Source: a virus. From it: DNA of 64,000 nucleotides. The translations under genes and the position numbers were made by a program. Numbering within the stretch: the stretch's first letter is position 1; each line of letters opens with the position of its first letter. The notes below the pieces were generated by a model. That model made no database searches. It was not told the origin of the DNA and worked only from the letters and a program-made list of their open reading frames with translations. The DNA lies in IMG/VR virus record IMGVR_UViG_3300037418_004082. One strand, given 5' to 3'. This document shows positions 46,460-63,565 of the stretch, piece by piece.

Positions 46460-46462
46460 CGC

Positions 46463-49400
46463 ATGGACTCGGAAGACAAGAACCTCCCGCTCACGTTCGA
46501 GGACAAGTGCGGATTCTACGTCGAGGGCGTGCTGTGCGCGTTCGCCGTGATCCAGTGGATCGTGGAAGCCGGCGCGGTGCCGCAGATGTTCGTGACCATC
46601 CCGGCCACCCCGGAGATGCGCTCGCTGTCGCGCCGGGCGCGCGTTCACTTCCTGGTGGAGGAGCCCGCGCCGCCGCACGACATCGTGTGCATCTTCGAGG
46701 GCGAGGTGAGCGGGCGCGACTTCAAGAAGAGCGCCGACGGTCGTGGCTTGTCGTTCCCCGTGCACCACGTCGTGTGGCACCTCGACCAGTACGAGATGGA
46801 AGCCCTCGACAACCTCGTGTACATCCGCGCGTTGCTCAACGGAACCGCGTCTACCGAGAACGTCGTCGCGACCGTCACGGGTTCGCTGCTCGAACTCTTC
46901 ACGCCGGACAACCTGGTGGCGATTCTTAACGACCCCGCTTACGTGGACAAGACGACCATCGCGCCGGGCGTCAAGACGGCCAAGGTCTCCGCCGATAAGT
47001 TGACGGTGGGTGACTTCGTGCGCGGCGCGTTCTTGTTGTACCGTCACGTGTTCAACAACAGCCGCATCGCCGCCACCTACACGAACGACGCGATGACCTT
47101 CCACCAGTTGGGTGCGCGGTTCCAGTTGCCGGACCCCGCCGTGGTGGACTGGACGGACCTCTACAAGCGCTTGATGTTCGCCTTGCTGACGCGCGGCGTC
47201 AACGCGGCCGGCGGCAAGCAGACCTTCTTGGACCTGGTGCGCACGGTCTGTGCGCAGTTCCTGCACCAGGTGGTGGTCCAGCCGCACGCGGAGTCCGTCA
47301 CCAAGCAAGTGCAGATCAAGCCGCAGACCTTCTTCAACGCCATCCCGAACTGCAACGTGGTCTTCCCCAGCATGACAGGCGAGGTGGACTTCCAGGAGTC
47401 CTTCACCAACAAGCCGACCCGCATGCGCACGATGTTCATGCCGTTCGGGTTGTCGCCCGACCAGGACGTGTCCGTGCTCAACCGCTACTTCACCGTCTAC
47501 GCGCCGGTAGAGCTGCAGTGGCGCTGGGAAGGCATCAGCCAGGTGGCGGCGCAGAGCAAGCCCACCGCGCCACAGCGCGCCGTGGACGCGAAGACCAAGG
47601 CGCCGATCATCAAGAAGCCGGTGGACGGCATCCCGTTCGTCACGCAGGAGGAAGACGCTCGCGGCATCGTGAGCGTGGACTACCCCATGCCGCCGATGTT
47701 GAACTACGCCATCATGAGCGAGGTCTCGACGTACACGCGTGACGCCATCGACGCGAACCTCTCGCCCGTGGACGGCACGAGCGATCCCGCGGAGGTCTAC
47801 AAGCGGCTCCAGTCCGGCACGGAAACGGACCGCCTCACGAAGTACCGCGCCTTCTTGTCGTTGGCGCTGGGCCACGCGAACGGCATCGACCCGCAGCGCT
47901 TCAAGAGCGCGCCGTACCTGCGCGAGTTCGTGAACCTCGACAAGCTGGGCGGCGTCGTGCTGCCCGACACGCCCACGATGGTGCCCACGCGCATCGCGCT
48001 GATGCCGCTTCCCATCAAGGTCAACCTCAAGAACCACACGCCGACGCGCCAGGCGCTCGTGAACACGGGCGTGAACTACCTGGTCACGCGCGATGGCGTG
48101 GTGGTCGAGATCCTGCGCCGCGATCACCAGCTCTTCCCGGAGCCGCTCGCGCTGCCCCTGGGCCTGAAGCTCGCGGGCGTCGGCAACCCGGGCGACTACG
48201 CGGCCCTCAACAAGCTCGTGCCGCCCTTCGGCGTGGCGCGCTCCGAAGCGCGCGGGATGATCGACTTCCAGGCGAAGAACCTCGTGGTGCCGCCCGTGGT
48301 CTACCCGGAGGCGGCCGCCGTCGCGACCAACGCCAGCTACGGCGACTACGTGCTCCTGCGTCCGGCCGTCGCATCGAACCAGCCGATCAACTTCCAGACC
48401 GTGCGGTCGAGCACGATGGACGACGCGATGTTCGCGCGCATCCGGGCCGGCGAGACGTCCGTTCACCTCGAAGGCGGCGGGCTGTCCGTGAGCGGCGTCG
48501 TGCAGGGCAAGACGCACTACGTCAAGACGAACGGCAACGCGAGCCAGAACGACAACTGCTTCGTGCTCAAACTGCCGGAGAGCATCAAGATTCCGTTCGG
48601 CGTGCCGTTGACGTTGACCATCAACACGAAGACGTCGTTCGTCGCCGGTAAGCCGTGGCTGTTCTGCAACCACACGAAGCAGGCCACGTCGGCCAGCACG
48701 CTGTCACACTGGGCCAACCTGGGCGCGAACCAGGGCATCGACGCGGCCGTTGCCGACAACCAGGTGGTCGGCGGCAACGTCGGCACCGTGGTGATCGGCT
48801 TCGAGACCCTGAACGGCACCCTTACCGGCCAGCAGGCCACGATGGGCGCGTTCCTCTGCGCGGCCATCCGCCAGATGGGCGTGAAGTCGGTGGGCGAGAC
48901 CAAGGCGCCGAAGCTGGGCCCCGCGACCATCCTGATGGAGAACGTGGTCGAAGCGTCCAGCCTGTACGGCCCTGGAGCGCGCCTGGACACGTCGGTGGGG
49001 CCGCTCGACGTGAACGGCATCAAGGCGCAGGTGAGCTTCTTCGAGCAGCAGCTCTTCAAGGACTTCAACACCTGGGACAAGGACCTCACCGCTGGCAACA
49101 CCAGCTCGATCGGCGCACCGGCCGTGGACGTGTCGGCGGCCGACCGCCCCACGGCGCTGCCGGTGGACCCCGCAACCCACTCCGTTTTCGCGGACAACGC
49201 CGATCTGCCGACCACGCCCGGGATGACGCCGGTGTCTGACGCCGACGCGAAGAAGCTGAACGCCATCGGCTTTAACGGCGCGACGCTGCAGAACTTCGTG
49301 CACAACTACGTGTCGGGCTACTTGAATCACCAATTCTACAACGCCCGGCTGGGTCCTCAATCGTACACCGGTCGTGTCGAGTGGAACCCGTACATGATGG

Positions 49401-50371
49401 TGGACTATCCTGCCTTGATCGTAGACAACGAGCACACGTCGTTCGACTTGGTGGGCCACGTGCACGCCATCGCGATGACGTTCACGCCCACGTCGGTCGA
49501 ACAGCAGGTGACGTACACGCACCTGCGACCGGCCATCGGTGCCGTGGACGTCGTGCAGACCGACGAGGGCAAGGCGACGCCGGTCGGTCAGCGTGAAGCG
49601 ATGATCCCGTTCAAGACGGCGCGCAAGCAGGAGCTGATCTACGTGATGCCGCCCGACCGCAAGATCGCGCGGGACCCGGTGGCCTACCAGCAGTACCTGA
49701 AGGCGCAGGGGCTGTTCATCCCGGAGACCTTCTTGCCGATTCAGCTCCACGACCTGGGCGCGCACAAGCCGCCGCCGTTCCTGTACACGGGCGGCTTCGG
49801 GCTGGGCAAGCAGTTCCTGTCGTTCGACAAGACCGGCGTACCCAACAGCTTCCGGGACTTCAGCGGCTACGCGATCTACCTGGGCTACGTGACGGAGGCC
49901 AACAACCAGAAGGCGCTGCCGACGCACGAGAACAACCTGGTGTTCGCGGACACCCTGGGGACGCTCGACCGTGCCAAGGACGTCCAGACCGCCTACCAGT
50001 TCACCCGCCGGCCCATCCAGAAGGTCGGCCAGAACGACCTGACGAAGCGGCAAGCCTGCTTGGTGGCCTGGGCCGACGAGGCGGAGGAGCTGAACGGCGA
50101 CGTCGCCACCGGCAGCGAGAATTTCGGGCTCTCGCTCCTCAACCAGGTGCTCGCGCCCCTGGGCAAGAAGCCGACGCCCGCGGCCAAGCAGAAGGCCCAG
50201 GTGGGCTTCGGCGAGGCCATCGTGGTCTACACCGTGCCGCCGACGTACGACGCGAAGGGCAACATCACCGCGAAGGGCACCACGCTGGAGTTCGACGAGC
50301 AGGTGCGGGCGCTCGTGCGAGCGCACACCTTCCGGGTGCGGCGTAAGGAAGCCATCTGGGACGGCCGCTGA
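46463..50371 (+). CDS. Baseplate hub protein (gp27/late-control-D-like) with large insert
   Basis: FYVEGV..VHFL..IFEGEV.G..GRGLSF N-terminus; PNCNVVFP; YNAR..YTGRVEWNPYMMVDYPALIVD. Confidence 0.6.
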   Translation: MDSEDKNLPLTFEDKCGFYVEGVLCAFAVIQWIVEAGAVPQMFVTIPATPEMRSLSRRARVHFLVEEPAPPHDIVCIFEGEVSGRDFKKSADGRGLSFPVHHVVWHLDQYEMEALDNLVYIRALLNGTASTENVVATVTGSLLELFTPDNLVAILNDPAYVDKTTIAPGVKTAKVSADKLTVGDFVRGAFLLYRHVFNNSRIAATYTNDAMTFHQLGARFQLPDPAVVDWTDLYKRLMFALLTRGVNAAGGKQTFLDLVRTVCAQFLHQVVVQPHAESVTKQVQIKPQTFFNAIPNCNVVFPSMTGEVDFQESFTNKPTRMRTMFMPFGLSPDQDVSVLNRYFTVYAPVELQWRWEGISQVAAQSKPTAPQRAVDAKTKAPIIKKPVDGIPFVTQEEDARGIVSVDYPMPPMLNYAIMSEVSTYTRDAIDANLSPVDGTSDPAEVYKRLQSGTETDRLTKYRAFLSLALGHANGIDPQRFKSAPYLREFVNLDKLGGVVLPDTPTMVPTRIALMPLPIKVNLKNHTPTRQALVNTGVNYLVTRDGVVVEILRRDHQLFPEPLALPLGLKLAGVGNPGDYAALNKLVPPFGVARSEARGMIDFQAKNLVVPPVVYPEAAAVATNASYGDYVLLRPAVASNQPINFQTVRSSTMDDAMFARIRAGETSVHLEGGGLSVSGVVQGKTHYVKTNGNASQNDNCFVLKLPESIKIPFGVPLTLTINTKTSFVAGKPWLFCNHTKQATSASTLSHWANLGANQGIDAAVADNQVVGGNVGTVVIGFETLNGTLTGQQATMGAFLCAAIRQMGVKSVGETKAPKLGPATILMENVVEASSLYGPGARLDTSVGPLDVNGIKAQVSFFEQQLFKDFNTWDKDLTAGNTSSIGAPAVDVSAADRPTALPVDPATHSVFADNADLPTTPGMTPVSDADAKKLNAIGFNGATLQNFVHNYVSGYLNHQFYNARLGPQSYTGRVEWNPYMMVDYPALIVDNEHTSFDLVGHVHAIAMTFTPTSVEQQVTYTHLRPAIGAVDVVQTDEGKATPVGQREAMIPFKTARKQELIYVMPPDRKIARDPVAYQQYLKAQGLFIPETFLPIQLHDLGAHKPPPFLYTGGFGLGKQFLSFDKTGVPNSFRDFSGYAIYLGYVTEANNQKALPTHENNLVFADTLGTLDRAKDVQTAYQFTRRPIQKVGQNDLTKRQACLVAWADEAEELNGDVATGSENFGLSLLNQVLAPLGKKPTPAAKQKAQVGFGEAIVVYTVPPTYDAKGNITAKGTTLEFDEQVRALVRAHTFRVRRKEAIWDGR

Positions 50372-50377
50372 TAATTC
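50370..50377 (+). promoter_or_regulatory. GATAATTC candidate promoter heading the sigma/RNAP operon
   Basis: Overlaps the hub stop codon; GGAGG SD follows. Confidence 0.65.
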
Positions 50378-50393
50378 CTTTGGAGGGACCCTC

Positions 50394-51023
50394 ATGAGCA
50401 ACAAGCCGAACATCAACGCCGAACCGTCCGCGATGGCCGAAGTGGCCGGGGGCGCCGGGATGATTCTGGGGGTCGGCGGGTTCGCCGCCGCGCTCGCCAA
50501 GAAGAAGCCGTCGGCGCTCGCCGCGATGGCGAAGCACGCGGGTCTCGAACGCTTCGACGCCGACGACGCGTCGCACCGATCGGCCATCGGCGCTTTCGTG
50601 GCGCGCGAGAAGGCCGCGACCGTCACCGCCTGGGCCGCCCTGACGCCCGACGAGAAGCTGGCCCAGAAGTCCGCCTTCGAGGTCCGCTTCGGCACCCTGG
50701 AGAGCGCGGAGCGCCTGGTGGCGTTCGCGGAGAAGACCGCGGGCTTGTCGGAGAGCGACAAGGACCTGCTGCGCAAGGACCCGCAGGCTCTGCGCGACAC
50801 GGCCGCGGTGATGGACAAGCTCCGCCAGCGCACCTTCCTGGGCGCGATCGCGGGCACGGCCCTGGGCCACGGCATCGGCGAGTCCGCGCCCGCTCGCATC
50901 GGCGGCATGCTGGCCGGCGGCGCGCTGGGTGGTACGCTGGGGGCGCTCTCCGCGAACCCGAACGGCGACATGGCGCGCGTCTACGCGAGCGCGCTGGAGC
51001 GCCGGCAGCAGAAGCTGACCTGA
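50394..51023 (+). CDS. Glycine-zipper protein (putative internal virion/ejection protein)
   Basis: GGAGMILGVGG; LGAIAGTALGHGIG; GGMLAGGALGGTLG; AEKTAG. Confidence 0.7.
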   Translation: MSNKPNINAEPSAMAEVAGGAGMILGVGGFAAALAKKKPSALAAMAKHAGLERFDADDASHRSAIGAFVAREKAATVTAWAALTPDEKLAQKSAFEVRFGTLESAERLVAFAEKTAGLSESDKDLLRKDPQALRDTAAVMDKLRQRTFLGAIAGTALGHGIGESAPARIGGMLAGGALGGTLGALSANPNGDMARVYASALERRQQKLT

Positions 51024-51024
51024 C

Positions 51025-51786
51025 ATGGGCAGCTTCCGTGACGTCCTTCGCCGCCGGGCCGACAACGCCCCGGTGGCGCCCGCGCCTCGGCCAGAGGTCG
51101 CCTTTGACGAGCGGTGCAAGGCCGCTGCCAAGGCGCGCCCGCAGCCGCCGGAGGTAGAGCTGCCGGCGACGCCGTCGAACGTCTTCGTGCAGTACCAGCC
51201 GCTGATCGACAAGACGGTCGGCCGCTGGGCCAGCTCGGGTTTGCCCAAGGTGGTGCTCGACGCGGAGGCGAAGCGGATCGTCGCGAAGGCGCTGGGCAGT
51301 CACGACCCGTCGAAAGGTACGCTGGGGCTGCACCTGCAGAACCACCTCCAGCAGATGGACGCCTTCGTCAACACGTTCGCGCCGGACGTGCGCGTGCCGC
51401 TTGACCGTCTGCGCGACGTGAACAAACACGTGAGCGACGACATCGCGTTTCGTGTGGACCACGGGTATGCGCCGCAGAACGCCGGAGCGCTGAACAAGTT
51501 CCAGACCAACCTCTACTCGAAGGTACAAGCGGGTGGCTTCTCGCAGCCCGTGAAGGAGGATCTGGGGCACGAGCAGATCGCGATGGACTTCCTCTACCAC
51601 GACCTGCCCAAGACGCACAAGCTGGTTTTCGCGCACAGCGTTGGCTACAACGGCATGCCGAAGCTCACCACCAATGACCTCGCTACCAAGCTGGGCGTGA
51701 GCGCCGGCCGCGTCAGCCAGTTGAAGAACGACATCGCCCAGCGGGCACACGAGTACAACTACGCGATCGAGAGCCTGATGCGATGA
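51025..51786 (+). CDS. Phage sigma70-family factor (divergent regions 2 and 4)
   Basis: QYQPLIDKTVGRW..AEAKRIVAKALGSHDPSKG..DVRVP (region 2); HKLVFAHSVGYNG..TTNDLATKLGVSAGRVSQL (region 4 HTH). Confidence 0.8.
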   Translation: MGSFRDVLRRRADNAPVAPAPRPEVAFDERCKAAAKARPQPPEVELPATPSNVFVQYQPLIDKTVGRWASSGLPKVVLDAEAKRIVAKALGSHDPSKGTLGLHLQNHLQQMDAFVNTFAPDVRVPLDRLRDVNKHVSDDIAFRVDHGYAPQNAGALNKFQTNLYSKVQAGGFSQPVKEDLGHEQIAMDFLYHDLPKTHKLVFAHSVGYNGMPKLTTNDLATKLGVSAGRVSQLKNDIAQRAHEYNYAIESLMR

Positions 51787-52688
51787 ACAAGCAAGCCTAC
51801 ACCCTGCTGCACGCGGTGGACCCGATCGGGAACCAGGACTGGATCCCGGCGCCCAGTATGCTGCCGGAGGACCTGAACGGTCAGCCGGTCACGATGCTGC
51901 GCGCTTACCGCGAGGACAACCCGCACCTCCACGCGCTCGCGCAAGCCGTCATGCTGGGCGGCGTGCGCATGCTCCCCCGTCACATGCTCGTCGATCCGGC
52001 ACACCCCCGCAAGAAAGAGGCCACCATGTCCCGTCCGCACGACATCTTCCTCGCCAAGCAAGCGGCGGAGGGGTTCGACCCCATCCTGCAGCACCCCAAC
52101 CTGGCCGCCAAGCCGAAGGGCATGGACGAGCTGGCGGAGCGCAAGAAGCAGTACCAGATCGGCGCGAGCCTGGGCGGCGGTCTGGGTGCGGTCGCGGGCC
52201 TGGGCGGCGGCCTGCTGGCGGAGCGCGCGATCGGCCTGCGTTCGCCGATGATCCCGGCCTACGGCGCGCTCGCGGGTGCGTCGCTGGGTTCGGCGGCGGG
52301 CGTGGGCGCGGCCCAGCTCGGCCGCTTCATCGGCAAGCTCAAGCGCCACGATCGCGCGGCGGACGACTACGAGCGCCAGACCGGCACGTCGCTGCCGTTC
52401 GACGTGCGCCACCCGTACATGGCCCGCGTCGCCCCGCTCGTGGCGTCGAGCCTGATGGGCTCGGCCGTGGGCCACGCGATGGCTCACCGCCACGGCCTCT
52501 CCGGTCTGCAGGGCGCGCTGCTGGGCAACGTGGCGGGCTCTACCATCGGCGCCGTGCTGACGCCGGGCACGCTGGCCGTGCTGCAGGGTCGCCGTGACGC
52601 CCTGCTGAAGGGCAAGGTCAACCAGCGCATGCTCTCGCAATCCGTCGTGGACGAAGACACCCTCGACGAGCAGGCGATGCGGGGGTAG
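51783..52688 (+). CDS. Glycine-zipper protein; possible internal start at 52026
   Basis: GASLGGGLGAVAGLGGGLLA; four hydrophobic GxxxG tracts; FLAKQAA. Confidence 0.7.
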   Translation: MNKQAYTLLHAVDPIGNQDWIPAPSMLPEDLNGQPVTMLRAYREDNPHLHALAQAVMLGGVRMLPRHMLVDPAHPRKKEATMSRPHDIFLAKQAAEGFDPILQHPNLAAKPKGMDELAERKKQYQIGASLGGGLGAVAGLGGGLLAERAIGLRSPMIPAYGALAGASLGSAAGVGAAQLGRFIGKLKRHDRAADDYERQTGTSLPFDVRHPYMARVAPLVASSLMGSAVGHAMAHRHGLSGLQGALLGNVAGSTIGAVLTPGTLAVLQGRRDALLKGKVNQRMLSQSVVDEDTLDEQAMRG

Positions 52689-52690
52689 AC

Positions 52691-55600
52691 GTGCGCACGC
52701 CCCAATCCCTCTTCAAGGACATGGCCCGCGAGTTCGGCGAGGGTCTCACGCACGCGTTTCCGATCGTCACGCCCGACAAGAAGGCCGTGGCGATCACCGC
52801 CGTGCACGTGCCGACGATGCTCGACCCCACGGACTACAACGCCCAGAAGGACACCATCATGAAGGGCGGCACGTGGGGCGTGCCCGTCAAGGCGACGGTC
52901 GCCATGCACGACGCCAAGGGGAAGGTGACGAGCAAGCACGACGTGCGCGTGGGCTTCTTGCCGACGCCCACGAACCGCCACACGTTCATCATCAACGGCA
53001 AGGAGTACCAGGTGAACATGCAGCGCCGCCTGCGGCCCGGCGTGTACACCAAGTTCAACCAGCTCGGCCAGGCGACGGCGGACTTCAACCTGGGCAAGGG
53101 CCGCAACTTCGCGCTTGCGCTCGACCCGGAGAAGAACCAGGTGGAGATGAAGTTCGGCAGCTCGCGCGTGCCGCTGCTGCCGGTGCTGAAGCACGTCTTC
53201 GGCAAGACCACGCTGGGGCTGGGCAAGGCGTTCGACGCGCCGATGGGCGCCGACGCGGAGCTGACCGCGCTCAAGGACCTGCATGCGCTGGTGCTCAAGA
53301 ACCAGACGGTGCCGTCGGACAAGACCGGGATCGTGCACGGGTTGCAGGACTACTTCCAGGCCACGCAGCTCGAACCCGCCGTCACGAAGCTCGTCGTGGG
53401 GGAGGCGCACAGCAACGTCAACGGTGACGTGCTCCAGCTCGCGGCGAAGCAGTTGCTCGCCGTGCACAAGCGCGAAGTGGACCCGTCGGGCAAGGACCAG
53501 ATGGCGTTCACGGAAGTGCACGGCGTCGAGGACTTCCTGCGCGAGCGCGTGCAGAAGAACCGCGGGATGATCGGTTACAAGCTGCGTCCACGCATCGAGA
53601 AGTACGATGACGTGCGCGAGTTGAAGCTGCACCAGTATGTGCAGCCGCTGATCGACGACTTCTTCACGAAGAGCGCGCAGAGCAACCACGTGATGCAGAT
53701 CAACCCCCTGGAGATGAAGGAGAACGCCTACAAGCTCTCCAGCCTGGGCGAAGGCGCCATCGGCGACACGCACGCCGTGACGCCGGAGGTGCGCGTCATC
53801 CACCCCAGCTCGATGGGCTTCATCGACCCCGTGCGCACGCCCGACAACGCCAAGGCCGGCGTGGACGTGCGCCTGGCGCTGGGCGCGAGCAAGGTGGGCA
53901 AGAACCTGCTGATCGACGTGCAGGACCGCAACGGCGAGTTCGTCTCGATGTCGCCGGAGAAGCTCTACGACAAGGTGGTGGCTCACGACAAGGAGCCCGT
54001 GGAGAACGGGCTCGTGCGCGCCATCCACCGCGGCCAGCTCGTGGACGTGTCGCCGTCGAAGGTGGACTACCGCCTACAGGCCGACCGCCAGTTCACCGTC
54101 AGCACGACGCTCGTGCCGTTCCTCGCGAACACGCACGCGCACCGCGCCGCGATGGGCGCCAAGATGCTGGGCCAGGCCGTGAGCCTGGTCGATCGCGAGC
54201 CGCCCATCGTGGACACCCCGCACTCGGAGATCGCGGGCGAGTTCGCGTCGCTGCGCAGTCCCGTCGCGGGGACGGTCAGCAAGATCGAGAAGGGCGTCAT
54301 TCACATCAAGTCGGGCGACACGACGCACAAGGTGAACTTCCCTTACGAGTTCCCGCTCAACGGGCACTCGTTCCTGCACGCGACCCCCGTCGTGAAGGCG
54401 GGTGACACGGTGACCAAGAACCAACTGCTCGCCGACACCAACTTCACGCAGAACGGTCAGCTCGCGTTGGGCAAGAACCTCACCGTGGCCTACTTGCCGA
54501 TGAAGGGCCTCAACCACGAGGACGCGGTGGTCGTCACGCGAAGCGGCGCGGCCAAGCTCACGAGCCAGCACCAGCACATCGAAGAGGTGGAGATCGACGG
54601 GCGCAGCGTACACGACAAGAAGAAGTTCCAGGCCCACTTCCCGGGTCGCTTCGAGCTGCAGCACCTGGGCAAGCTGGACGACCAGGGCGTCGTGAAGGTC
54701 GGCACCCGGCTGCAGGAAGGCGACCCCATCCTTGCGAGCCTGCGCAAGCGGCTGATGTCGCCGGAGCAGCTCCTGCTGGGCAAGGCCAACAAGGGCCTGG
54801 TCGAACCGTTCAGCGACACCAGCGTGACCTGGGACAAGCCGTACGAAGGGCGTGTCACGGGCGTCGAGAAGACGTCCAAGGGCATCAAGGTGTCCATCTC
54901 GGCCGTGGCGACGCTGCAGGAGGGCGACAAGCTCTGCGGCCGGCACGGCAACAAGGGCGTCGTGGCGGCCATCATCCCGGACGCGGAGGCCCCGCGCACC
55001 GCCGACGGCAAGGTGCCCGACGTGATCCTGAACTCCGCCGGCCTGACGAGCCGCATGAACAACGGCCAGATCTACGAGGTCGTGGCCGCCAAGGCGCTCC
55101 AGGCGCTGGGCAAGGCAGGGCAGAAGTTCCCGCACTTCGCGGGCGTCAACACGCACCAGCTCGTGAAGATGCTGCGCGACAAGGCCGGCATCAGCGAGAC
55201 GGAGCAGCTCTACGACGGCACGACCGGCCGCAAGCTGGGCGGGCCGGTGCTGATGGGCCCCATGTACATGCTCAAGCTGTTCAAGCAGGCGGAGACCGGA
55301 TTCTCCGCGCGCTCCGGCGGCGATTACGACATCGACCTGCGGCCCACCAAGGGCGGCGAGGAGGGCGCGAAGTCGGTGGGCCACCTCGACCTGTATGGCC
55401 TGCTCGCGCACGGGGCGCGGGCGTTCGTGCGCGACGCCCACATGAAGAGCGAGTACAACCCGGAGGTCCTCACCGCGATGTGGAAGGGCCAGCCGCTGCC
55501 GCCGCCCAAGCCCACGTTCGCCTTCAAGAAGTTCGAGGCGATGCTGGGCGGCATGGGCGTTAACGTGAAGAAGGAGGGGCACACGCTGCAGCTCCTGCCG

Positions 55601-56980
55601 CAGACCGACGCGGAGACCCTGGCCCGGTCCAGCGGTCCTATCGTGCGTCCGCTCACGGTCAACGACAAGCCCGACCCCGTCACCAACCTGCCCTTCCGCC
55701 CGGAGGCGGGTGGCCTGTTCGACCCCAACGCCACGGGTGGGCTCGTGGGCACGCGTTGGAGTCACATCCCGCTCGCGGAGCCGATCGTGAACCCCTTGTT
55801 CCACAACGCCGCACGCACGTTGTTAGGATTGACCAAGGACGAGTTCAATGCTAACCTGTATGATCGCGGCGCAGTGCACGTCAAGCAACAACTTGCGGCC
55901 ATCGACGTGCCCGCACGTATCGACGAACTTAAGCATCAGCTCGTGAACACGAACGCCGTGTCGAAGCGTGACGGCATTCACAAGCAGTTGAAGTACCTCA
56001 CGGCATTACACAAGAGCGGACTCCGTCCAGAAGATGCGTACATCATGCACCACGTGCCCGTCGTGCCTCCTCACGTGCGGCCCATCTACCCGGACCCCGA
56101 CACGGGACGACTTGTCGTGTCGGACGCGAACGTTCTCTACAAGAACCTGATGCTCGTGAACGACCAGCTCGCGCAGCACAAGAACCTCGGCGACGCGGAC
56201 ACGATCCGCGCGTTGCGTCACGGGTTGAATGATGCGTTCGCCAAGGTGCAGGGCCTCGATGCACCAGCCGAGCAGATGTCGAAGGAGAAGCCCGCCGTGG
56301 GCTTCCTCAAGGTCATCACGGGCACCGGCCAGGCCAAGGATGGCTTCTTCCAGGCGAAGCTCGTGAGCCGGCGCCAGGACATCGCCGGTCGCGGCGTCGT
56401 GGTGCCGGATACGAGCCTGGGCATCGACGAGCTGGGCGTGCCCAAGGCCATGGCCTGGAAGATCTACCGCAACCACGGCATCGGCGAGTTGGTGCAGAGC
56501 GGTATGCCCCTCGTGGCGGCCGCCCGCGAGTTCGAAGACCAGACGCCGACCGCCGAAAAGGCCGTGCTTTCGGCCATGAAGAAGTTCCCGACCGTGATCT
56601 CGCGTGCGCCCTCGCTCCACAAGTTCAACATCGCGGCCTTCCGGCCTCGGATGGTGGAGGGCAAGAGCCTGCGCGTGAACACGCTCGTGCTCAAGGGGTT
56701 CAACATGGACTTCGACGGGGACCAGGTCAACGTGCACGTACCCATCTCGCCGGAAGGCGCGAAGGATGCGGTCACGCGGATGCTGCCTTCCGCCAACCTG
56801 TACAACCCCTTGAACTCCGCGCCGATCCACGTGCCGTCTCAAGAGACGGTGCTGGGTCTGTGGAAGGCGACCAACGTCGCCGGGAAACCGCCCGTTCGCT
56901 CCTTCGCCACCCAACAGGAAGCGACCGCGGCTTACCGACGGGGTGAGATCGGCATCACCGACCCCATTTCCATCGGTTGA
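52691..56980 (+). CDS. rpoB-rpoC(N): RNA polymerase beta subunit fused to the N-terminal half of beta'
   Basis: Beta motifs TFIINGKE, DPVRTPD, GDKLCGRHGNKG, SRMN.GQ, GPMYMLKL; beta' motifs PVVPPHVRP, RAPSLH, NMDFDGD, PSQETVLG. Confidence 0.97.
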   Translation: MRTPQSLFKDMAREFGEGLTHAFPIVTPDKKAVAITAVHVPTMLDPTDYNAQKDTIMKGGTWGVPVKATVAMHDAKGKVTSKHDVRVGFLPTPTNRHTFIINGKEYQVNMQRRLRPGVYTKFNQLGQATADFNLGKGRNFALALDPEKNQVEMKFGSSRVPLLPVLKHVFGKTTLGLGKAFDAPMGADAELTALKDLHALVLKNQTVPSDKTGIVHGLQDYFQATQLEPAVTKLVVGEAHSNVNGDVLQLAAKQLLAVHKREVDPSGKDQMAFTEVHGVEDFLRERVQKNRGMIGYKLRPRIEKYDDVRELKLHQYVQPLIDDFFTKSAQSNHVMQINPLEMKENAYKLSSLGEGAIGDTHAVTPEVRVIHPSSMGFIDPVRTPDNAKAGVDVRLALGASKVGKNLLIDVQDRNGEFVSMSPEKLYDKVVAHDKEPVENGLVRAIHRGQLVDVSPSKVDYRLQADRQFTVSTTLVPFLANTHAHRAAMGAKMLGQAVSLVDREPPIVDTPHSEIAGEFASLRSPVAGTVSKIEKGVIHIKSGDTTHKVNFPYEFPLNGHSFLHATPVVKAGDTVTKNQLLADTNFTQNGQLALGKNLTVAYLPMKGLNHEDAVVVTRSGAAKLTSQHQHIEEVEIDGRSVHDKKKFQAHFPGRFELQHLGKLDDQGVVKVGTRLQEGDPILASLRKRLMSPEQLLLGKANKGLVEPFSDTSVTWDKPYEGRVTGVEKTSKGIKVSISAVATLQEGDKLCGRHGNKGVVAAIIPDAEAPRTADGKVPDVILNSAGLTSRMNNGQIYEVVAAKALQALGKAGQKFPHFAGVNTHQLVKMLRDKAGISETEQLYDGTTGRKLGGPVLMGPMYMLKLFKQAETGFSARSGGDYDIDLRPTKGGEEGAKSVGHLDLYGLLAHGARAFVRDAHMKSEYNPEVLTAMWKGQPLPPPKPTFAFKKFEAMLGGMGVNVKKEGHTLQLLPQTDAETLARSSGPIVRPLTVNDKPDPVTNLPFRPEAGGLFDPNATGGLVGTRWSHIPLAEPIVNPLFHNAARTLLGLTKDEFNANLYDRGAVHVKQQLAAIDVPARIDELKHQLVNTNAVSKRDGIHKQLKYLTALHKSGLRPEDAYIMHHVPVVPPHVRPIYPDPDTGRLVVSDANVLYKNLMLVNDQLAQHKNLGDADTIRALRHGLNDAFAKVQGLDAPAEQMSKEKPAVGFLKVITGTGQAKDGFFQAKLVSRRQDIAGRGVVVPDTSLGIDELGVPKAMAWKIYRNHGIGELVQSGMPLVAAAREFEDQTPTAEKAVLSAMKKFPTVISRAPSLHKFNIAAFRPRMVEGKSLRVNTLVLKGFNMDFDGDQVNVHVPISPEGAKDAVTRMLPSANLYNPLNSAPIHVPSQETVLGLWKATNVAGKPPVRSFATQQEATAAYRRGEIGITDPISIG

Positions 56981-57066: not shown

Positions 57067-59871
57067 ATGCTCTTGAAAGACCTTCCGCTCCGCGTGCAAA
57101 CCATCGCGGCGCAGTCCGTTCGTGTGTCGGACAACGCCCAAACGGTGATGGAGAAGCGCTACTACGTGAAGGATGACCAGCGCAAGCCCACGGAAGACGT
57201 GGACGGCATGTACTGGCGGGTGGCCTTCACGCTGGCTCTGATCGACGTCCGCTACGGCGGCAACCCCACGCTCCTGATGGAGCAGACCCAGGACGGTCTG
57301 TACGAGGTCTCGGAGTTCGAGGCCGACGACGCGATCATCTACGCGGCCGCGCTGCGCTTCTACCGCGTGATGCGCGACGGCATGTGGCTCCCCAACAGCC
57401 CCTGCGTCGCCAACGCGGGCGCTCGCACCGGCCAGCTCTCGGCCTGCTTCGTGCTGCCCATCCCCGACGACCTGGAGGGCATCTTCGAGACCGTGAAGCA
57501 GGCGGCCCTGATCCACCAGACCGGCGGCGGCACGGGCTTCGCCTTCAGCCGCCTGCGCCCCAAGAACGACATCGTCAACTCCTCCAAGGGCAACTCCAGC
57601 GGCCCGGAGTCCTTCCTGGAGGTCTTCAACGCCTCCACGGAGTCCATCAAGCAGGGCGGCATGCGCCGCGGCGCCAACATGGGCATCCTGCGCATCGATC
57701 ACCCGGACATCGAGAGCTTCATCGTCAAGAAGCTGGAGCCGGGCGTGTGGGCCAACTTCAACGTCAGCGTGGGCGTCACCGACGCTTTCGAGCAGGCCCT
57801 GGAGGCGGAGGATGACCGCTACGAGCTGATCAACCCGCGCAGCGGCCCGACCGGTCAGTTCCTGCACGCGCGCCAGGTGCTCAAGAGCATCGTGAAGTGC
57901 TCGTGGACTCGCGGCGAGCCCGGCCTGGTCTTCCTGAACCGCATGAACCGGGAGAACCCCGTGCCGCACGCGGGCGAGTACGAGGCGACCAACCCTTGCG
58001 GCGAACAGCCCCTGATCCCCTACGAGTCCTGCAACCTGGGCTCGATCACGCTCGATCGCTTCGTCGTTCCCGCGGTTCCCGGTCGCTACACGGCGGAGAC
58101 CCAGACCCACGGAGAGTCTTCCGGTCGGCTGTGGATCCCGGGGCAGCCCGCGCGGATCGACTGGGACGGCCTGGCCGCTGCGGTCAAGATCGGCGTCTGG
58201 GCGATGGACAACGTCGTGGACGCCAACGCCTACGTGCCCAAGGTGCCCCAGATCGCGCAGATGGCCCTGTACACCCGCAAGATCGGCCTGGGCATCATGG
58301 GCCTGGCCCGCGCCCTGTTCAAGCTCAAGCTGGGCTACCACACGCCCGAAGGCCGCGAGATGGCCGCCTTGCTCTTCGCCTTCATCGACGCGCACGCCAA
58401 GCTGGCGTCGCAGGAGTTGTCGAAGCAGCGCGGCGTGTACCCGTACTACGCGGAGCACCGCGAGGAGTCGGAGAGCTTCCACCGCCGGCTGTTCGCGAAG
58501 CGCCAGAAGGCCGTGGAAGGCTACATCGGGACCGGTGTCGTCGCCAACGTCGGCGTGTGGAACATCGTGCACAAGCTCTACGGTCAGGCCATCGACCAGC
58601 TCCCGACGCACGGTATGCGCAACTCCACGACCGGCACGATCGCGCCCACCGGCACGCTCTCGATCTTCCACGAGACCTCCGGCGGCTGCGAGCCCGTGTT
58701 CGCCATCGTGTTCACGCGCTTCCAGGCCGACGAGGAGATGCCCGACACCGACCCCGTCGTGCGTCAGGAGCTGCTCGACATCTTCGGCGGCGACGAGACG
58801 ATGGTGGCCCGCGTGCTGGAGATCGTCCAGAAGCAGGAAGCCGAAGGCGGCATCGACGGCTCGCTGGTCAGCGCGCTGAAGCTGGGCTTCCTGCGCGGCT
58901 TCGGTACGATCGAGCAGTACGAAGCGCTCACGCAGGCGTCGGAGTACCTGGTCTGCGCGCCCGACGTGCACCCGATGGACCACGTGCGCATGCAAGCCGG
59001 GCTGCAGATCTTCAACGACAGCGCCGTGTCGAAGACGATCAACTTCTCGGAGAACGCCACGGAGCAGGACATCGAAGACGCGATGATGCTCGCCATCAAG
59101 TTGGGCGTCAAGGGCATCACCGTGTACCGCGACAAGAGCCGCGAGTTCCAACCGCTCACCGCCGGCACGAAGTCGAGCAAGGCGTTGGCGGAGAAACCCG
59201 TTGACACGAACGTCGTGACGACGTTTAATGGGGAGACCACCACGCTCCCCACGACAACGGAGGTCAAGCCGGTGACGACCAGCACCCAGGGACCGCGTCC
59301 GCGCACCGAAGACCTGTTCGGCTTCACGCGCACCATCACGACCGGAGACGGGAAGCTCTACGCCACGCTGAACTACGACGAGTTCGGCATGCGCGAGGTC
59401 TTCCTGAACATCGGGCGTTCCGGCGGCACGACCCACAGCTTCGGCGAAGCGTTGGGCCGCATGGTCACGCTCGCGCTCCAGAACGGCGTGGACCCCGACG
59501 CGATCGCGTCCAACCTGGTGGGCATCCGCAGCTCCGATCCGTCGGGCTTCGGGGCGAGCCGGGTGCTGTCCATCGCCGACGGCGTGGGGCAGTTGCTCAA
59601 GAACGCGCCGCGATCGCTGAAGGAGCTGTACGCGCCGGAGGCACCCCTGCACGGTCGCGGCGGCGCCCACGGCAGCGGGTACGTCCACATCCAGCAGCTC
59701 CCGCCCGTCGAGGTCACGGTGGGCGCCGCCCAGACGCAGGACGAGCGCACCTACCGCGTGCAGGTGCTGGGCGAGAGCCCGGACTGCCCGGACTGCGGCA
59801 AGGCGCTCCGCTTCGAGGAGGGGTGCAAGAAGTGCCCCGACTCCGTCTGCGGTTACAGCGCCTGCTCGTAA
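57067..59871 (+). CDS. nrdJ: Class II (B12-dependent) ribonucleotide reductase with TSCPD domain and Zn ribbon
   Basis: PNSP, QLSACFV, GGGTG, RRGANMG, TNPCGEQ, ESCNLGSI, TIAPTG, VSKTIN; C-terminal CPDCG..EEGC..C..CGYS. Confidence 0.95.
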   Translation: MLLKDLPLRVQTIAAQSVRVSDNAQTVMEKRYYVKDDQRKPTEDVDGMYWRVAFTLALIDVRYGGNPTLLMEQTQDGLYEVSEFEADDAIIYAAALRFYRVMRDGMWLPNSPCVANAGARTGQLSACFVLPIPDDLEGIFETVKQAALIHQTGGGTGFAFSRLRPKNDIVNSSKGNSSGPESFLEVFNASTESIKQGGMRRGANMGILRIDHPDIESFIVKKLEPGVWANFNVSVGVTDAFEQALEAEDDRYELINPRSGPTGQFLHARQVLKSIVKCSWTRGEPGLVFLNRMNRENPVPHAGEYEATNPCGEQPLIPYESCNLGSITLDRFVVPAVPGRYTAETQTHGESSGRLWIPGQPARIDWDGLAAAVKIGVWAMDNVVDANAYVPKVPQIAQMALYTRKIGLGIMGLARALFKLKLGYHTPEGREMAALLFAFIDAHAKLASQELSKQRGVYPYYAEHREESESFHRRLFAKRQKAVEGYIGTGVVANVGVWNIVHKLYGQAIDQLPTHGMRNSTTGTIAPTGTLSIFHETSGGCEPVFAIVFTRFQADEEMPDTDPVVRQELLDIFGGDETMVARVLEIVQKQEAEGGIDGSLVSALKLGFLRGFGTIEQYEALTQASEYLVCAPDVHPMDHVRMQAGLQIFNDSAVSKTINFSENATEQDIEDAMMLAIKLGVKGITVYRDKSREFQPLTAGTKSSKALAEKPVDTNVVTTFNGETTTLPTTTEVKPVTTSTQGPRPRTEDLFGFTRTITTGDGKLYATLNYDEFGMREVFLNIGRSGGTTHSFGEALGRMVTLALQNGVDPDAIASNLVGIRSSDPSGFGASRVLSIADGVGQLLKNAPRSLKELYAPEAPLHGRGGAHGSGYVHIQQLPPVEVTVGAAQTQDERTYRVQVLGESPDCPDCGKALRFEEGCKKCPDSVCGYSACS

Positions 59872-59885
59872 GGTAGAACCAGAGG

Positions 59886-59910
59886 CCCCCGGCGATTGCC
59901 GGGGGTTTTT
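59886..59910 (+). terminator. Intrinsic terminator
   Basis: CCCCCGGC-GATT-GCCGGGGG-TTTTT. Confidence 0.9.
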
Positions 59911-59920
59911 GCTTGGGGCG

Positions 59921-59928
59921 GATAATTC
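59921..59928 (+). promoter_or_regulatory. GATAATTC candidate promoter for a leaderless helicase mRNA
   Basis: After a terminator; ATG 12 nt after the G; no SD. Confidence 0.7.
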
Positions 59929-59932: not shown

Positions 59933-61489
59933 ATGCGACCTTACGAACTCTTCCTCGCCAAGACCGCTCGCCTCCGGCCCGACATCGAGCTGGCGCCCCA
60001 TCAGCAAGAGGCCGTCGAACGCGTGGCGCGCACGCGAGCCCAACTGCTCGCGCACGGCACGGGCACCGGCAAGACCGGCACGAGCGCGGCCGCCGTCGAG
60101 CGCCTGCGCGAGCTGGGCAAGGCCAAGCGCACGCTCGCCGTCGTGCCGGCGCCCTTGATCGACAACTACGCCGACGAGGGCGTGAAGAAGTTCACGGACC
60201 AGTCCGTCACGAAGCTGGGTCCTGACGGTACGCCGGGTCATCATCACATCGACAGCAAGCTGCCCAACAGCAGCTACTACGTCGTGAGCAACGAGATGTT
60301 CCGCAAGGACCCTCACAAGTATATCGACCGCACGGGTGCCGACACCGTCATCTGGGACGAGGCGCACAAGGGCCGATCGGAAGAGTCGCTCAACTACCAC
60401 GCGATGAAGTCGATCCGTCACAAGGTGAAGAACTTCATCGCGCTCACCGGCACGCCCGCGATGAACCACCCGCACGACATCGTCCCGCTGATTGACGTGG
60501 TCAGCAACGGCCAGCATAACCTGGGCACGACGGCCCAGTTCGACAAGCTGTACACGACCACGCGCACGCGGACGCACGGTCCGCTCGCCTGGGCGGGCAT
60601 CGGGCCGAAGACGCAGGAGGTGGTGCTGAAGAACCAGCACATGCTGCGGCCGGAGCTGAACAAGCACATCCACTACGTGCCCGTCGAGGATGTCGTGAAG
60701 AACATGCCGAAGAAGATCGTGCACACGCACGAAGTCGAGATGAGCCCACATCAGAAGTCGCTGTACGACTTCACGATGGGCCAGATCGACCCGGCGACGC
60801 GTGCGAAGATCAAGAACAACGTGCCCGTGAGCCAGGGGGAAGCACGCTCGATCCTCACGAAGATCGTACGCACGCGCCAGTTGTCGAACGCCGTACACAC
60901 GATGGACTCCGGTCACGACGCGGGCTCGGCCGCCGAAGCGACGCCCAAGATGCGCCGGATGCTCGACGACGTGCACCGTCACCTGCAAGAGCATCCCGGC
61001 AACAAGGCGATCGTCTACACGAACCTGGTGCACGGCGGCGTGGACGCGGCCGTCGCCGGGCTCAAACACCGCGGCTACGAACCGGGCGTCTTCACGGGCA
61101 CCCAGCAGCAGGCGCGCAGCGAGCGCACCCAGCACATCAAGGACTACATGGCAGGCCACAAGCGCGTGATGGTCATCAACAGCGCCGGCACGGAGGGTCT
61201 CAACCTGCCGGGCACGACGGCGCACTTCACGCTCGACGGCCACTTCAACCCCAAGGTGACCGAACAAGCCGAAGCGCGTGGTATCCGGGCGGGCTCCCCC
61301 GTCAAGGAGGTCCACGTGCACCGCTACCTCTCGACGCCGCCCAAGGTGTTCGGTCTCTTCAAGAGCCCGGAGACGAGCGTGGACCAGTGGGTCTACAACG
61401 TCGCCGCACGCAAGGAGCACTTGAACAACCAGGTGCTCACGTTGTTGGATCGTGGAGGACAGCGGCATGTCGATCGGAAAGCACTTTAG
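59933..61489 (+). CDS. SNF2-like SF2 helicase/translocase
   Basis: LAPHQ, AHGTGTGKT, VVPAPL, DEAH, LTGTP, GTEGLNL, EQAEARGIR. Confidence 0.9.
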   Translation: MRPYELFLAKTARLRPDIELAPHQQEAVERVARTRAQLLAHGTGTGKTGTSAAAVERLRELGKAKRTLAVVPAPLIDNYADEGVKKFTDQSVTKLGPDGTPGHHHIDSKLPNSSYYVVSNEMFRKDPHKYIDRTGADTVIWDEAHKGRSEESLNYHAMKSIRHKVKNFIALTGTPAMNHPHDIVPLIDVVSNGQHNLGTTAQFDKLYTTTRTRTHGPLAWAGIGPKTQEVVLKNQHMLRPELNKHIHYVPVEDVVKNMPKKIVHTHEVEMSPHQKSLYDFTMGQIDPATRAKIKNNVPVSQGEARSILTKIVRTRQLSNAVHTMDSGHDAGSAAEATPKMRRMLDDVHRHLQEHPGNKAIVYTNLVHGGVDAAVAGLKHRGYEPGVFTGTQQQARSERTQHIKDYMAGHKRVMVINSAGTEGLNLPGTTAHFTLDGHFNPKVTEQAEARGIRAGSPVKEVHVHRYLSTPPKVFGLFKSPETSVDQWVYNVAARKEHLNNQVLTLLDRGGQRHVDRKAL

Positions 61490-61724
61490 CGGTAACGACG
61501 AGACGACGGCCATCAACGTGTACAAGCTCTCGTTGATCGGCGTCGCCGACCTACGTGACGTGTGCGATCGTCACCATCTACCCGTGCGCATCGACGTGAT
61601 GCTACCGGGCACGAAACAGGAGTTCATCCAGGTTGTAGCGCCGCACGCGCAGATGCTACAATTTGTGTTCTATCTGTTCAACAACGAGTTCAACTACAAG
61701 TACGAGTTAGGGAGCACGCCGTGA
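61467..61724 (+). CDS. Hypothetical protein
   Basis: GGAGG SD; TGA overlaps the start of the beta' C gene. Confidence 0.6.
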   Translation: MSIGKHFSGNDETTAINVYKLSLIGVADLRDVCDRHHLPVRIDVMLPGTKQEFIQVVAPHAQMLQFVFYLFNNEFNYKYELGSTP

Positions 61725-63565
61725 GCCGCGTCACCACCATTGGTCAACTCCTAGTCGAGGACGCCCTCCCGAAGGGCGTGAAGTCGCCGGGCTTGCTCGA
61801 CAAGTCCGGGATGGGCAAGCTCTTGAGCACCGTCGCCCAGACGCACCCGCAGCAGTACGGCGAGGTCGTGAAGTCGATCCGCGACGTCGGCAACCAGGTG
61901 GCCTTCGAGACGGGCAGCAGCTTCACGCTGGAGGATCTGGAGCCCAAGACGGGGATGCGCGACGCCGCGTTCGAGGAACACGAGGCAGAACTGCTGGCCG
62001 CGCGCAAGGCGCTCTCCGCCGACCCGCGCTCGACGGCGCTGCAGGCCCGGAAGATCGGTGTCCTCGCGAAGATCGAGGAGACTATGAACAAGGGCATCGG
62101 CGCGTTCGTCAAGAAGGCGCCCGACAACCTTACCGCCTGGGTAGCCTCTGGCGCCCGCGGCGACGTCGCGATGGCTCGCCAGATGGTCGGGATGGCCGGC
62201 ATGAACTTGGACGCCGCCAACCGTCTGATCCCGGAGATCGCGAAGCGGAGCTTGAGCGAGGGCTTGAGCCCTATCGACTTCCACGTGCACGCGCAGGGTG
62301 CGCGGCGCGGTCTCGTCAACACGTACCTGGCCGTGCGCGACCCCGGCGCGTTCGCCAAAGAGCTGAACACCATCCACATGGACATGCTCGTCACGGGCGC
62401 CGATTGCGGCACGACGCACGGCCGCGAGATGCTGACGTCCGACCCGGACATCGTGGACCGCTGTCTGGCCCAGGACGTGGCCGGCGTGGGCTACCGCAAC
62501 GACGTCATCACGACGGCCATGCGCGACGCGCTCGTGAAGCGTCACAAGACGGTGCAGGTCCGCTCGCCGCTGACGTGCACCCAGGTCACGGGCGTCTGCG
62601 CGCACTGCTTGGGGCTGAACGAGGAAGGCCGCCTGCCGCCGGTGGGTGAGCACGTGGGCCTCAAGGCGGCGCAAGCGCTCACGGAGCCCCTGACCCAGCT
62701 CGCGCTCAACCAGAAGCACACCGGCGGCGTCGTGGGCGCCGGCCGCAGCCCGCTGCAGAAGATCCTGACCTTCATGCACGCGCCCAAGAACTTCCCCGGC
62801 GCCGCGCCGCTCGCCCGCGCGAGCGGGACGATCACGTCGATCGACAAGGCGGCCGCGGGCGGCTACCACGTCCACATCGGCGAGCTGCAGCACTACGTCG
62901 GCCCGGAGTCGGAGCTGCGGGTCAAACCCGGCCAGGCCGTGGCCGCGGGCGACGTGTTGGGCAGCGGCCAGCCCAACCCGGTCGAGGTGGTGGCCTACAA
63001 GGGGATGCAGGAGGGCCGGCGCTACTTCGCCGACGAGCTGAAGAAGACCTACGCCGACGCGGGCATCCGCGGGCAGGGTCGCATCTTCGAGACCGTGGCA
63101 CGTGGCATCCTCAACCTGGGCCAGGTGGTGTCCGGCGGCCGCCACGACTACACGCCCGGCGAGATGGTCCACTGGAACGCCATCCAGGAACACCTCCCGA
63201 CCTCGCACGAGAGCGTCGCGACCGGCGGCGCCACGGGACGGATTCTCGCGCAGGAGGCCGGCGGCCTGCTCCCCTACACCACCCTCACCGCGACCCACGT
63301 GGAGAAGCTCAAGAAGCTGGGCTTGCCCAATGTGCCGGTCTTCCACAAGGACGCCCTCGTGGTGCGGCCGGTGATGCTGGGGACGGAGCGCGCGGCCCTG
63401 CACAAGGACGACTGGCTCGCGAACCTGGCCTTCCGCTTCGTCAACCGCACGTTCAAGGAGAACGCGGCCACGGGCGCCAAGGCGACGGTAGGCGGGGGCT
63501 TCAACCCCATCCCCACGTTCGTCTACGGCCAGCACTTCGGCGAAGGCAAGGGAGGGCGCTACTAA
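61721..63565 (+). CDS. rpoC(C): RNA polymerase beta' C-terminal subunit
   Basis: TTIGQLL..LDK; SGARG; QMVGMAG; EGLS; GARRGL (bridge helix); DCGT, RSPLTC..GVCAHC (Zn site); EPLTQLALNQKHTGG (trigger loop). Confidence 0.96.
   Translation: MSRVTTIGQLLVEDALPKGVKSPGLLDKSGMGKLLSTVAQTHPQQYGEVVKSIRDVGNQVAFETGSSFTLEDLEPKTGMRDAAFEEHEAELLAARKALSADPRSTALQARKIGVLAKIEETMNKGIGAFVKKAPDNLTAWVASGARGDVAMARQMVGMAGMNLDAANRLIPEIAKRSLSEGLSPIDFHVHAQGARRGLVNTYLAVRDPGAFAKELNTIHMDMLVTGADCGTTHGREMLTSDPDIVDRCLAQDVAGVGYRNDVITTAMRDALVKRHKTVQVRSPLTCTQVTGVCAHCLGLNEEGRLPPVGEHVGLKAAQALTEPLTQLALNQKHTGGVVGAGRSPLQKILTFMHAPKNFPGAAPLARASGTITSIDKAAAGGYHVHIGELQHYVGPESELRVKPGQAVAAGDVLGSGQPNPVEVVAYKGMQEGRRYFADELKKTYADAGIRGQGRIFETVARGILNLGQVVSGGRHDYTPGEMVHWNAIQEHLPTSHESVATGGATGRILAQEAGGLLPYTTLTATHVEKLKKLGLPNVPVFHKDALVVRPVMLGTERAALHKDDWLANLAFRFVNRTFKENAATGAKATVGGGFNPIPTFVYGQHFGEGKGGRY

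Follow-up and report, generated by a model that had tools for sequence, protein, structure and literature searches.

The 64,000-nucleotide (nt) stretch of DNA analyzed here (the window) covers bases 19702-83701 of a 153-kb virus record from IMG/VR (IMGVR_UViG_3300037418_004082; 66% GC, estimated to be 74% complete), and it encodes a sigma70-family protein, P0001, within an operon for a bacterial-type RNA polymerase (RNAP). P0001 and its relatives stand apart as a new branch within the sigma70 family, strongly diverged and tied to phage-encoded bacterial-type RNAPs. We consider it probable that this family provides the dedicated, single-copy core sigma factor of the phages' own bacterial-type RNAP, possibly reading promoters that consist only of a -10 element with the sequence GATAAT. 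If true, this would be a compact bacterial-type holoenzyme that is orthogonal to the one of the host and widespread in uncultured phages of 150-210 kb. The sigma family is a core gene of this clade of phages of roughly 150-210 kb, which encompasses hundreds of metagenomic sequence clusters and only four isolates, and in the literature no study of it was found besides the genome paper of Salmonella phage Arash.

P0001 is a genuine, strongly diverged sigma70-family protein with a group-3-like architecture, i.e., sigma2-sigma3-sigma4 in about 230-260 amino acids (aa) with neither region 1.1 nor a non-conserved insert. An unconserved N-terminal region (residues 1-49) is followed by sigma2 (approximately 50-125), a shortened sigma3 (126-163), a linker similar to region 3.2 (164-181) and sigma4 (182-252). 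Searches with the single sequence returned little: NCBIfam gave no match and PHROG one weak match, the sole Pfam match was to Sigma70_r4 and stayed below the threshold (17.7 bits at a cut-off of 24.1, E 0.0025, residues 212-236), and the Pfam Sigma70_r2 model did not match. Likewise, a phmmer search of P0001 alone against the PDB found only a chance match to a glutathione S-transferase, and neither tblastn with P0001 as query, run on 50,697 isolate phage records, nor megablast with the locus returned a match. An exhaustive phmmer search with P0001 retrieved 556 relatives at E <= 1e-3, of which 74 scored 1e-10 or better; these are mostly 210-260 aa in length and align to residues 47-250. A profile of 50 relatives matches chains of RpoS, SigA, RpoD, SigB, SigF and FliA in the PDB over the whole of sigma2-sigma4, with E values of 2.5e-20 to 1e-16 for RpoS, SigA and RpoD. 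Regions 2.1-2.4 of sigma2 are recognisable within the full-length match to these three proteins (E 2.5e-20), with HDPSKG (residues 93-98) pairing with FDPERG of RpoS and VRVP (122-125) with IRLP, as the original prediction had supposed when it named these motifs as a remnant of region 2. The helix-turn-helix of region 4, which had been claimed as well, is borne out by the sub-threshold Sigma70_r4 match and by the family profile, whose alignment reaches through region 4.2 (pLDDT, the predicted local distance difference test, of 97-98 in the model described below). Among the 50 relatives, Pfam matches Sigma70_r3 in 45, although not in P0001 itself, Sigma70_r4 in 22 and Sigma70_r2 in two. The best NCBIfam models for the relatives are FliA/WhiG and SigB/F/G, all sub-threshold; with 15-50 bits against subfamily cut-offs of 190-234 the family is not assignable to these curated models. 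The AlphaFold2 model of P0001, which was calculated from the family alignment, has a mean pLDDT of 83, with sigma2 and sigma4 above 90. In Foldseek, its best 50 matches in the PDB are all sigma chains with a probability of 1.00, and its best viral structure matches (BFVD) are phage sigma factors. The global TM-scores against the sigma chains of the PDB are low (approximately 0.35), which is expected because a multi-domain protein was modelled free of the core enzyme. The original prediction of a sigma70-family factor was to fall if sigma domain 2 found no structural match; both the profile and the AlphaFold2/Foldseek comparison returned one.

In the profile alignment, the segment FSTYATWWIR of RpoS region 2.3 pairs with LGLHLQNHLQ in P0001 and with 'lstHvtnhLk' in the family. 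Of the residues that constitute the melting set in group 1/2 sigma factors, Y425 is replaced by Thr, Y430 by His103, W433 by Asn106 and W434 by His107 (sigma70 numbering); F427 is replaced by Leu, the positions equivalent to Arg436 and Arg441 are occupied by Gln and Ala, and residues 93-113 contain no Phe, Tyr or Trp at all. The earlier statement that region 2.3 of this protein is devoid of Tyr and Trp thus holds, while its register was off by one residue. Across 152 aligned family members the Y430 position is occupied by His in 107, by Tyr in 22, by Phe in 16 and by Trp in two, so that about a quarter (38/152) carry Tyr or Phe. The W433 position holds Asn in 95, Ser in 17 and Thr in 10 members, with no aromatic residue among those listed, and the W434 position His in 37, Asn in 30, Gln in 27, Tyr in 18, Arg in 13 and Trp in six. 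The missing Tyr/Trp melting residues are therefore a family-wide trait that is not peculiar to P0001. The motif of the family typified by gp10 of Arash, TYDPxKG-xLxTH-xxN-xL...R...R-I-P-E together with FEHxxGxxGxP, is found in P0001 in the degenerate form SHDPSKG-TLGLH-LQN-HL...A...RVPL.

The occurrence of the sigma family follows that of the phage RNAP. Two related viral contigs (L005 and L006) encode sigma factors that are 54 and 44% identical to P0001 next to RNAPs that are 64-65% identical, and the gene order (480 aa, 1302 aa, P0002, sigma, P0003, beta-beta'N, ribonucleotide reductase, SNF2) is kept in both. For the isolate phage records (INPHARED, 50,697 records) the more typical family member P0031 served as query, and it matched only Salmonella phage Arash and the Vibrio phages D69, D148 and D181, which are exactly the four isolates that encode the full-length fused RNAP. 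Most metagenomic contigs with family members are too short for gene context; among 17 IMG/VR records that carry the family the RNAP was found in 16, including all eight that are at least 90% complete. Exactly one strong profile match was obtained in each of the 17 records, i.e., the sigma is single-copy. A canonical sigma that Pfam Sigma70_r2 detects occurs in only eight of the 17 records, and in two of the eight with a completeness of at least 90%. Across 13 genomes, the pairwise identities of the sigma correlate tightly with those of the RNAP (Mantel r 0.97, a value reached by 0 of 5000 permutations), which speaks for joint vertical inheritance as core genes and not for contact as such.

The RNAP itself keeps the sites at which a sigma factor would dock, as had been predicted. 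In the fused beta-beta'N subunit P0004, SDANVLYKNLMLVNDQL (residues 1144-1160, nt 56120-56170) aligns well with the beta' coiled-coil (clamp helices) TSDLNDLYRRVINRNNRL of PDB structures. SPEQLLLGKA (residues 690-699, nt 54758-54787) falls into the position of the flap-tip sequence TPEEKLLRAI; this alignment is weak (9 bits) and is anchored by conserved blocks on both flanks. Both stretches are conserved within the clade, and we infer that P0001 binds the phage core. As an alternative, P0001 might redirect the core RNAP of the host, as T4 gp55 and SPO1 gp28/gp34 do, instead of serving the phage enzyme. This is the mode of action of most characterized phage sigma factors (see also PMC7824862). 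The family has retained the Glu equivalent to sigma70 E407 (region 2.2) and a standard overall sigma2 fold, so that P0001 may also be able to bind a bacterial core. However, the family was found only in phages with the fused RNAP (all four isolates, and the viral records as counted above), the sigma gene lies inside the RNAP operon, and in several 100%-complete records the family member is the only sigma detected beside an RNAP with conserved docking sites. We regard redirection of the host enzyme as unlikely.

Experimental data from a relative exist for phage Arash. Its gp10, annotated as 'RNA polymerase sigma factor RpoS' (PMC10585845), belongs to the same family (hhalign probability 99.9%, E 6e-37); it is a sigma2-3-4 protein of 234 aa, and the phage also encodes a fused beta-beta'N, a separate beta'C and an SNF2 helicase. 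The sequence THVYNW of gp10 carries His at the Y430 and Asn at the W433 position like P0001. In contrast to P0001, gp10 has a complete sigma3 and carries Trp at the W434 position, and the direct comparison of the two yields only approximately 29% identity over a short stretch. Moreover, some 118 kb separate the Arash gene, which lies in the structural module, from the RNAP genes of that phage; the gene of P0001, in contrast, is part of the RNAP operon. Mass spectrometry of Arash virions detected gp10 with 100% coverage and 467 spectra, and also the beta-type protein gp206 as most abundant protein, the beta' protein gp216 and the helicase gp217 (PMC10585845). Virion presence was measured for Arash only. 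With gp10 detected in these virions alongside RNAP and SNF2 helicase, the phage may package the holoenzyme and inject it, and by analogy packaging is plausible for the phage studied here.

Candidate promoters were found in the genome of P0001. The element GATAATTC occurs seven times in the window, each time on the + strand, with 0.19 copies expected, and GATAAT is present in 24 copies on the + strand of the 153-kb genome compared to 4.4 expected. Nearly all copies of GATAAT are intergenic and lie 5-40 nt before a start codon, several of them directly after terminators. The most over-represented word of the genome is (C)TGATAAT(TC); when a second promoter-like word was sought in the genome, the other over-represented words proved GC-richer and look codon-driven. 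Copies of GATAATTC stand at the head of both the sigma-RNAP operon (50370) and the SNF2-beta'C unit (59921), and the contig L005 (70% GC) contains only two copies of GATAAT in 20 kb, at both orthologous places. The hexamer has the invariant A-11 and T-7, a G at -12 and is situated almost solely on the coding (non-template) strand. No conserved -35 element was visible by eye upstream of the GATAAT copies, and pairs of sigma70-type -35 and -10 elements in 45000-64000 did not exceed chance. The positions of P0001 that we take to correspond to the -35-contacting residues R584, E585 and R588 of sigma70 are Ala, Gly and Ser, and the lack of a visible -35 element is consistent with a family that does not have the -35-reading residues of sigma70.

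Several observations weigh against a role as dedicated core sigma that reads GATAAT. Within the family P0001 is an outlier and an extreme case, which is also reflected by the lack of any NCBIfam match: position 93 (equivalent to F419) is His in P0001 alone, while Tyr or Phe is present in 146/152 members; further near-invariant sites are changed from Thr to Leu (102), from Arg to Ala (113) and from Glu to Leu (126); and about 13 sigma3 residues that are kept by the closest relatives are gone from P0001 only (alignments A1 and A2). The same genome encodes a second, more canonical sigma of 301 aa (G000:C1:107075-107980, +, outside the window; L003:1417-2322) that could be the factor reading GATAAT. 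It scores 42 bits on Pfam Sigma70_r2, which is above the cut-off, has THAYWKIK in region 2.3 and shows no relationship to the P0001 family in a comparison of profiles (hhalign probability 2%). Around the sigma gene of 40 loci from the wider clade GATAAT is not enriched; it thus does not appear to be a clade-wide promoter, and the motif is specific to the subclade of P0001. Tens of kb separate the sigma gene from the RNAP genes in most members of the clade, and the co-variation of sigma and RNAP reflects shared descent and not necessarily physical contact. With regard to packaging, the authors of the Arash study warn that highly expressed non-structural proteins may contaminate virion preparations (PMC10585845), and a search of P0001 for the MRP-type N-terminal tag of the SNF2 helicase revealed no clear copy.

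Another alternative is that P0001 is a decaying or auxiliary copy in this phage and that the canonical 301-aa sigma took over the promoters of the phage RNAP, including GATAAT. The loss of four near-invariant residues and of part of sigma3 would fit a decaying gene, and the canonical sigma, which has Tyr and Trp in region 2.3, would fit the invariant A-11 and T-7 of GATAAT by a sigma70-style readout of the -10 element. Against decay, the gene has an intact reading frame with translational coupling inside the RNAP operon, the model gives high confidence for sigma2 and sigma4, and the identity to the orthologue of L006 is 43.6% for P0001 and 45.3% for its sister from L005, so that the rate is not accelerated and P0001 does not look like a decaying gene. 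Against a takeover, the relative L005 likewise has both sigmas together with the same GATAAT sites, and most of the near-complete clade genomes yielded no canonical sigma. A replacement of P0001 by the 301-aa protein is thus quite improbable.

The features of the operon and of the adjoining RNAP unit are listed in Table 1. The stop and start codons of the first four genes abut or overlap (51023/51025, 51783-51786 and 52688/52691), which agrees with the earlier placement of the sigma gene inside an RNAP operon.

Table 1. Positions of P0001, its segments and the surrounding genes and signals in the window.
Feature	Position	Strand	Details and evidence
GATAATTC, promoter-like element heading the operon	50370..50377	+	16 nt before the start codon of P0002
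P0002, first operon gene	50394..51023	+	209 aa, Gly/Ala-rich; weak homologues at the same place in L005 and L006
P0001, sigma70-family factor	51025..51786	+	ATG start, 253 aa; profile, model, relatives
Region 2.3 equivalent LGLHLQNHLQ of P0001	51322..51351	+	Residues 100-109; alignment to RpoS, family residue counts
Sigma3 remnant of P0001	51400..51513	+	About 13 residues (the region 3.1 helix-turn-helix part) gone; gap in P0001 only
Sigma4 helix-turn-helix (region 4.2) of P0001	51667..51735	+	Pfam Sigma70_r4 at residues 212-236; pLDDT 97-98; family counts
P0003	51783..52688	+	301 aa, Gly-rich; internal tag-like peptide MSRPHDIFLAKQAA at nt 52026
P0004, RNAP beta fused to the N-terminal half of beta'	52691..56980	+	1429 aa; Pfam Rpb2_6, Rpb1_1, Rpb1_2; PDB alignments
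Catalytic NMDFDGD of P0004	56702-56725	+	
Ribonucleotide reductase large subunit, last operon gene	57067..59871	+	Pfam Ribonuc_red_lgC, 4e-109
Likely intrinsic terminator at the end of the operon (GC-rich hairpin and T5)	59884..59910	+	Read directly from the sequence
Second GATAATTC element	59921..59928	+	ATG of the SNF2 helicase 4 nt downstream; GATAAT at the orthologous place in L005
SNF2-family helicase, begins with MRPYELFLAKTA	59933..61489	+	Pfam SNF2-rel_dom; tag scan
C-terminal half of beta'	61562..63565	+	Pfam Rpb1_5, Rpb1_4

P0002 found no match in Pfam or PHROG. P0003 carries repeats that resemble glycine zippers, and the relatives have one to several paralogous copies, with two to four located between the sigma and the RNAP gene (L005:10689-12584; L006:11204-13321). 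The gene of the ribonucleotide reductase, which contains a TSCPD domain, separates the two RNAP genes and belongs to the same transcription unit as sigma and beta-beta'N, a placement that is the same in L005 and L006; the enzyme of L006 matches as two pieces approximately 850 nt apart and may therefore carry an insertion. The hairpin behind it was not listed by the consensus scan. For the SNF2 helicase the ATG at 59933 is the most likely start, and due to its short distance to GATAATTC the mRNA may be nearly leaderless. Its N-terminal MRPYELFLAKTA is common to about six proteins of the genome (genome positions 84530-, 96766+, 113455- and 127204+, with an internal copy at 71727+); the stretch MGSFRDVLRRRA of the sigma was considered as a further copy of the tag and dismissed, its resemblance being too weak to count. 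The first approximately 50 codons of the beta'C open reading frame (VRSSPSTRAHRRDATG..., window 61562-61720) look non-coding; since the tblastn homology to Arash begins at residue 54, translation probably starts near 61720. Upstream of the operon (29798-50371) very large genes are encoded on the + strand, with products of 1053 (tape-measure-like matches), 480, 1425, 1551, 480 and 1302 aa. Except for the tape-measure-like ones these have no match in PHROG, and the 1302-aa protein has none in Pfam either. The run of large genes places the RNAP-sigma operon within an apparent structural module, as in Arash.

Elsewhere in the clade both partners vary in architecture. A natural fusion of an SNF2 helicase and a sigma is encoded by P0065 (770 aa, L007:254-2566), and further fusions (among P0100, P0015 and P0012) combine the sigma with NUDIX (663 and 372 aa) or with a LigD-phosphoesterase/ligase-like part (682 aa). 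In a 100%-complete, terminally repeated relative of 186 kb (G006:C1:168828-169514, -) the sigma profile match crosses one in-frame TGA, for which a sequencing error, a split gene and recoding are possible explanations. The RNAP differs between the records G005, G007-G011 and G013 on the one hand and G003, G006, G012, G014 and G002 on the other: in some clade members the N-terminal parts of beta are encoded by genes of their own, and the fusion to beta'N involves just the C-terminal part of beta (frames of approximately 1000 aa); in others the RNAP match lies within open frames of 2015-3371 aa, a hint at fusions that are larger still.

For a dedicated sigma of the phage RNAP, we propose the following mechanism. 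In a canonical docking mode, sigma2 of P0001 would contact the beta' clamp helices and its sigma4 the beta flap tip, and P0001 would steer the phage RNAP to phage promoters, most likely the -10-only elements of the type (T)GATAAT(TC) that head the sigma operon and about 20 other units. There, His103, Asn106 and His107 would stand in for the Tyr430 stack and the Trp433/434 wedge. Since His could replace Tyr for stacking, A-11 would be captured by stacking on a His with no Trp wedge, in analogy to sigma28 reading GCCGATAA. The most far-reaching version, in which a virion-packaged dedicated sigma belongs to a self-contained machine of beta-beta'N, beta'C and SNF2 and in which His/Asn residues open -10-only GATAAT-type promoters with no sequence-specific -35 contact, appears possible to us, albeit doubtful. 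If P0001 is a dedicated sigma, its family would represent a natural experiment in the drift of region 2.3, from Tyr to His and from Trp-Trp to Asn-His, with promoters that are still opened. These questions can be addressed in Salmonella phage Arash or in the Vibrio phages.

Among known sigma factors, sigma28 of group 3 offers a close comparison. It lacks the Trp433/Trp434 dyad and reads GCCGATAA with G-12 and A-11; the non-template A-11 is flipped onto the stacking Tyr that is kept (Y76), and an Arg at the W434 position, which group 3 conserves, makes the contact to G-12 (PMC12784957). Like P0001, sigma28 (FliA/WhiG; e.g., PDB 6PMI and sigma28 of Pseudomonas aeruginosa) consists of sigma2-sigma3-sigma4, with neither region 1.1 nor Trp wedge, and its GCCGATAA shares G-12 and A-11 with the GATAAT candidate. 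They differ in the residues at the Y430 and W434 positions, where sigma28 has Tyr and Arg and P0001 has His103 and His107, in the -35 element, which sigma28 promoters need and which is not visible at the GATAAT copies, and presumably in the partner, which would be a phage-encoded core for P0001. A wedge-less group-3-like sigma that reads G-12 and A-11 is thus a known pattern, and what is new is the His in place of the stacking Tyr.

The comparison bears directly on the earlier proposal that a sigma with no aromatic residues melts promoters by a new chemistry, possibly by template-strand recognition as in the non-virion RNAP of phage AR9. This was suggested by the lack of Tyr, Trp and Phe in residues 93-113, by the Gln and Ala at the Arg436- and Arg441-equivalent positions and by the G at -12 of the promoter candidate. 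Such a chemistry is not needed, because sigma28 with no Trp dyad still flips A-11 and reads G-12; in addition, the imidazole of His can stack on a base, and a quarter of the family carries Tyr or Phe at the Y430 position. The missing aromatics alone imply no new mechanism, as group-3 sigmas already have no Trp wedge. Template-strand recognition in turn found no support, as P0001 does not show any hallmark of AR9 gp226, aligns with and folds like bacterial sigmas, and GATAAT, whose A-11 and T-7 are classic and invariant, is nearly confined to the coding strand. There is no sign of a new melting mechanism, which we consider highly improbable; the mechanistic novelty is mostly explained by known alternative sigmas, and the interest lies in the possibly packaged sigma-RNAP system.

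AR9 gp226 shows no detectable sequence similarity to sigma factors and has neither region 2.4 nor the helix-turn-helix of sigma4; an added helix, 2.1bis, builds its template-strand pocket, and it has a large, unique N-terminal domain (PMC9209446). AR9 gp226 and phiKZ gp68, promoter-specificity subunits of the non-virion RNAPs of jumbo phages, are like P0001 in its proposed role in that a phage-encoded specificity subunit serves a phage-encoded multisubunit RNAP, and neither of them is among the top structural matches of the P0001 model in the PDB and BFVD. Unlike gp226, P0001 has clear similarity to sigma factors, the RVP motif of region 2.4 and a helix-turn-helix, and in its model the helices 58-67 and 75-92 are connected by a loop of seven residues with no extra helix that would correspond to 2.1bis.

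T4 gp55, SPO1 gp28/gp34 and the SigF-like proteins of Bacillus phages share with P0001 that they are phage-encoded, diverged members of the sigma70 family, and proteins of this kind appear among the BFVD matches. T4 late promoters also consist of a -10 element only, and T4 gp55 comprises only a sigma2-like part, whereas P0001 keeps sigma4. These phages have no RNAP of their own, while the family of P0001 was seen only together with a phage RNAP. In phiKZ and AR9 the RNAP subunits are split and the enzymes use specificity subunits that are barely sigma-like; the RNAP described here is much closer to bacterial beta and beta', its subunits are fused, and it is accompanied by a recognisable sigma70-family factor.

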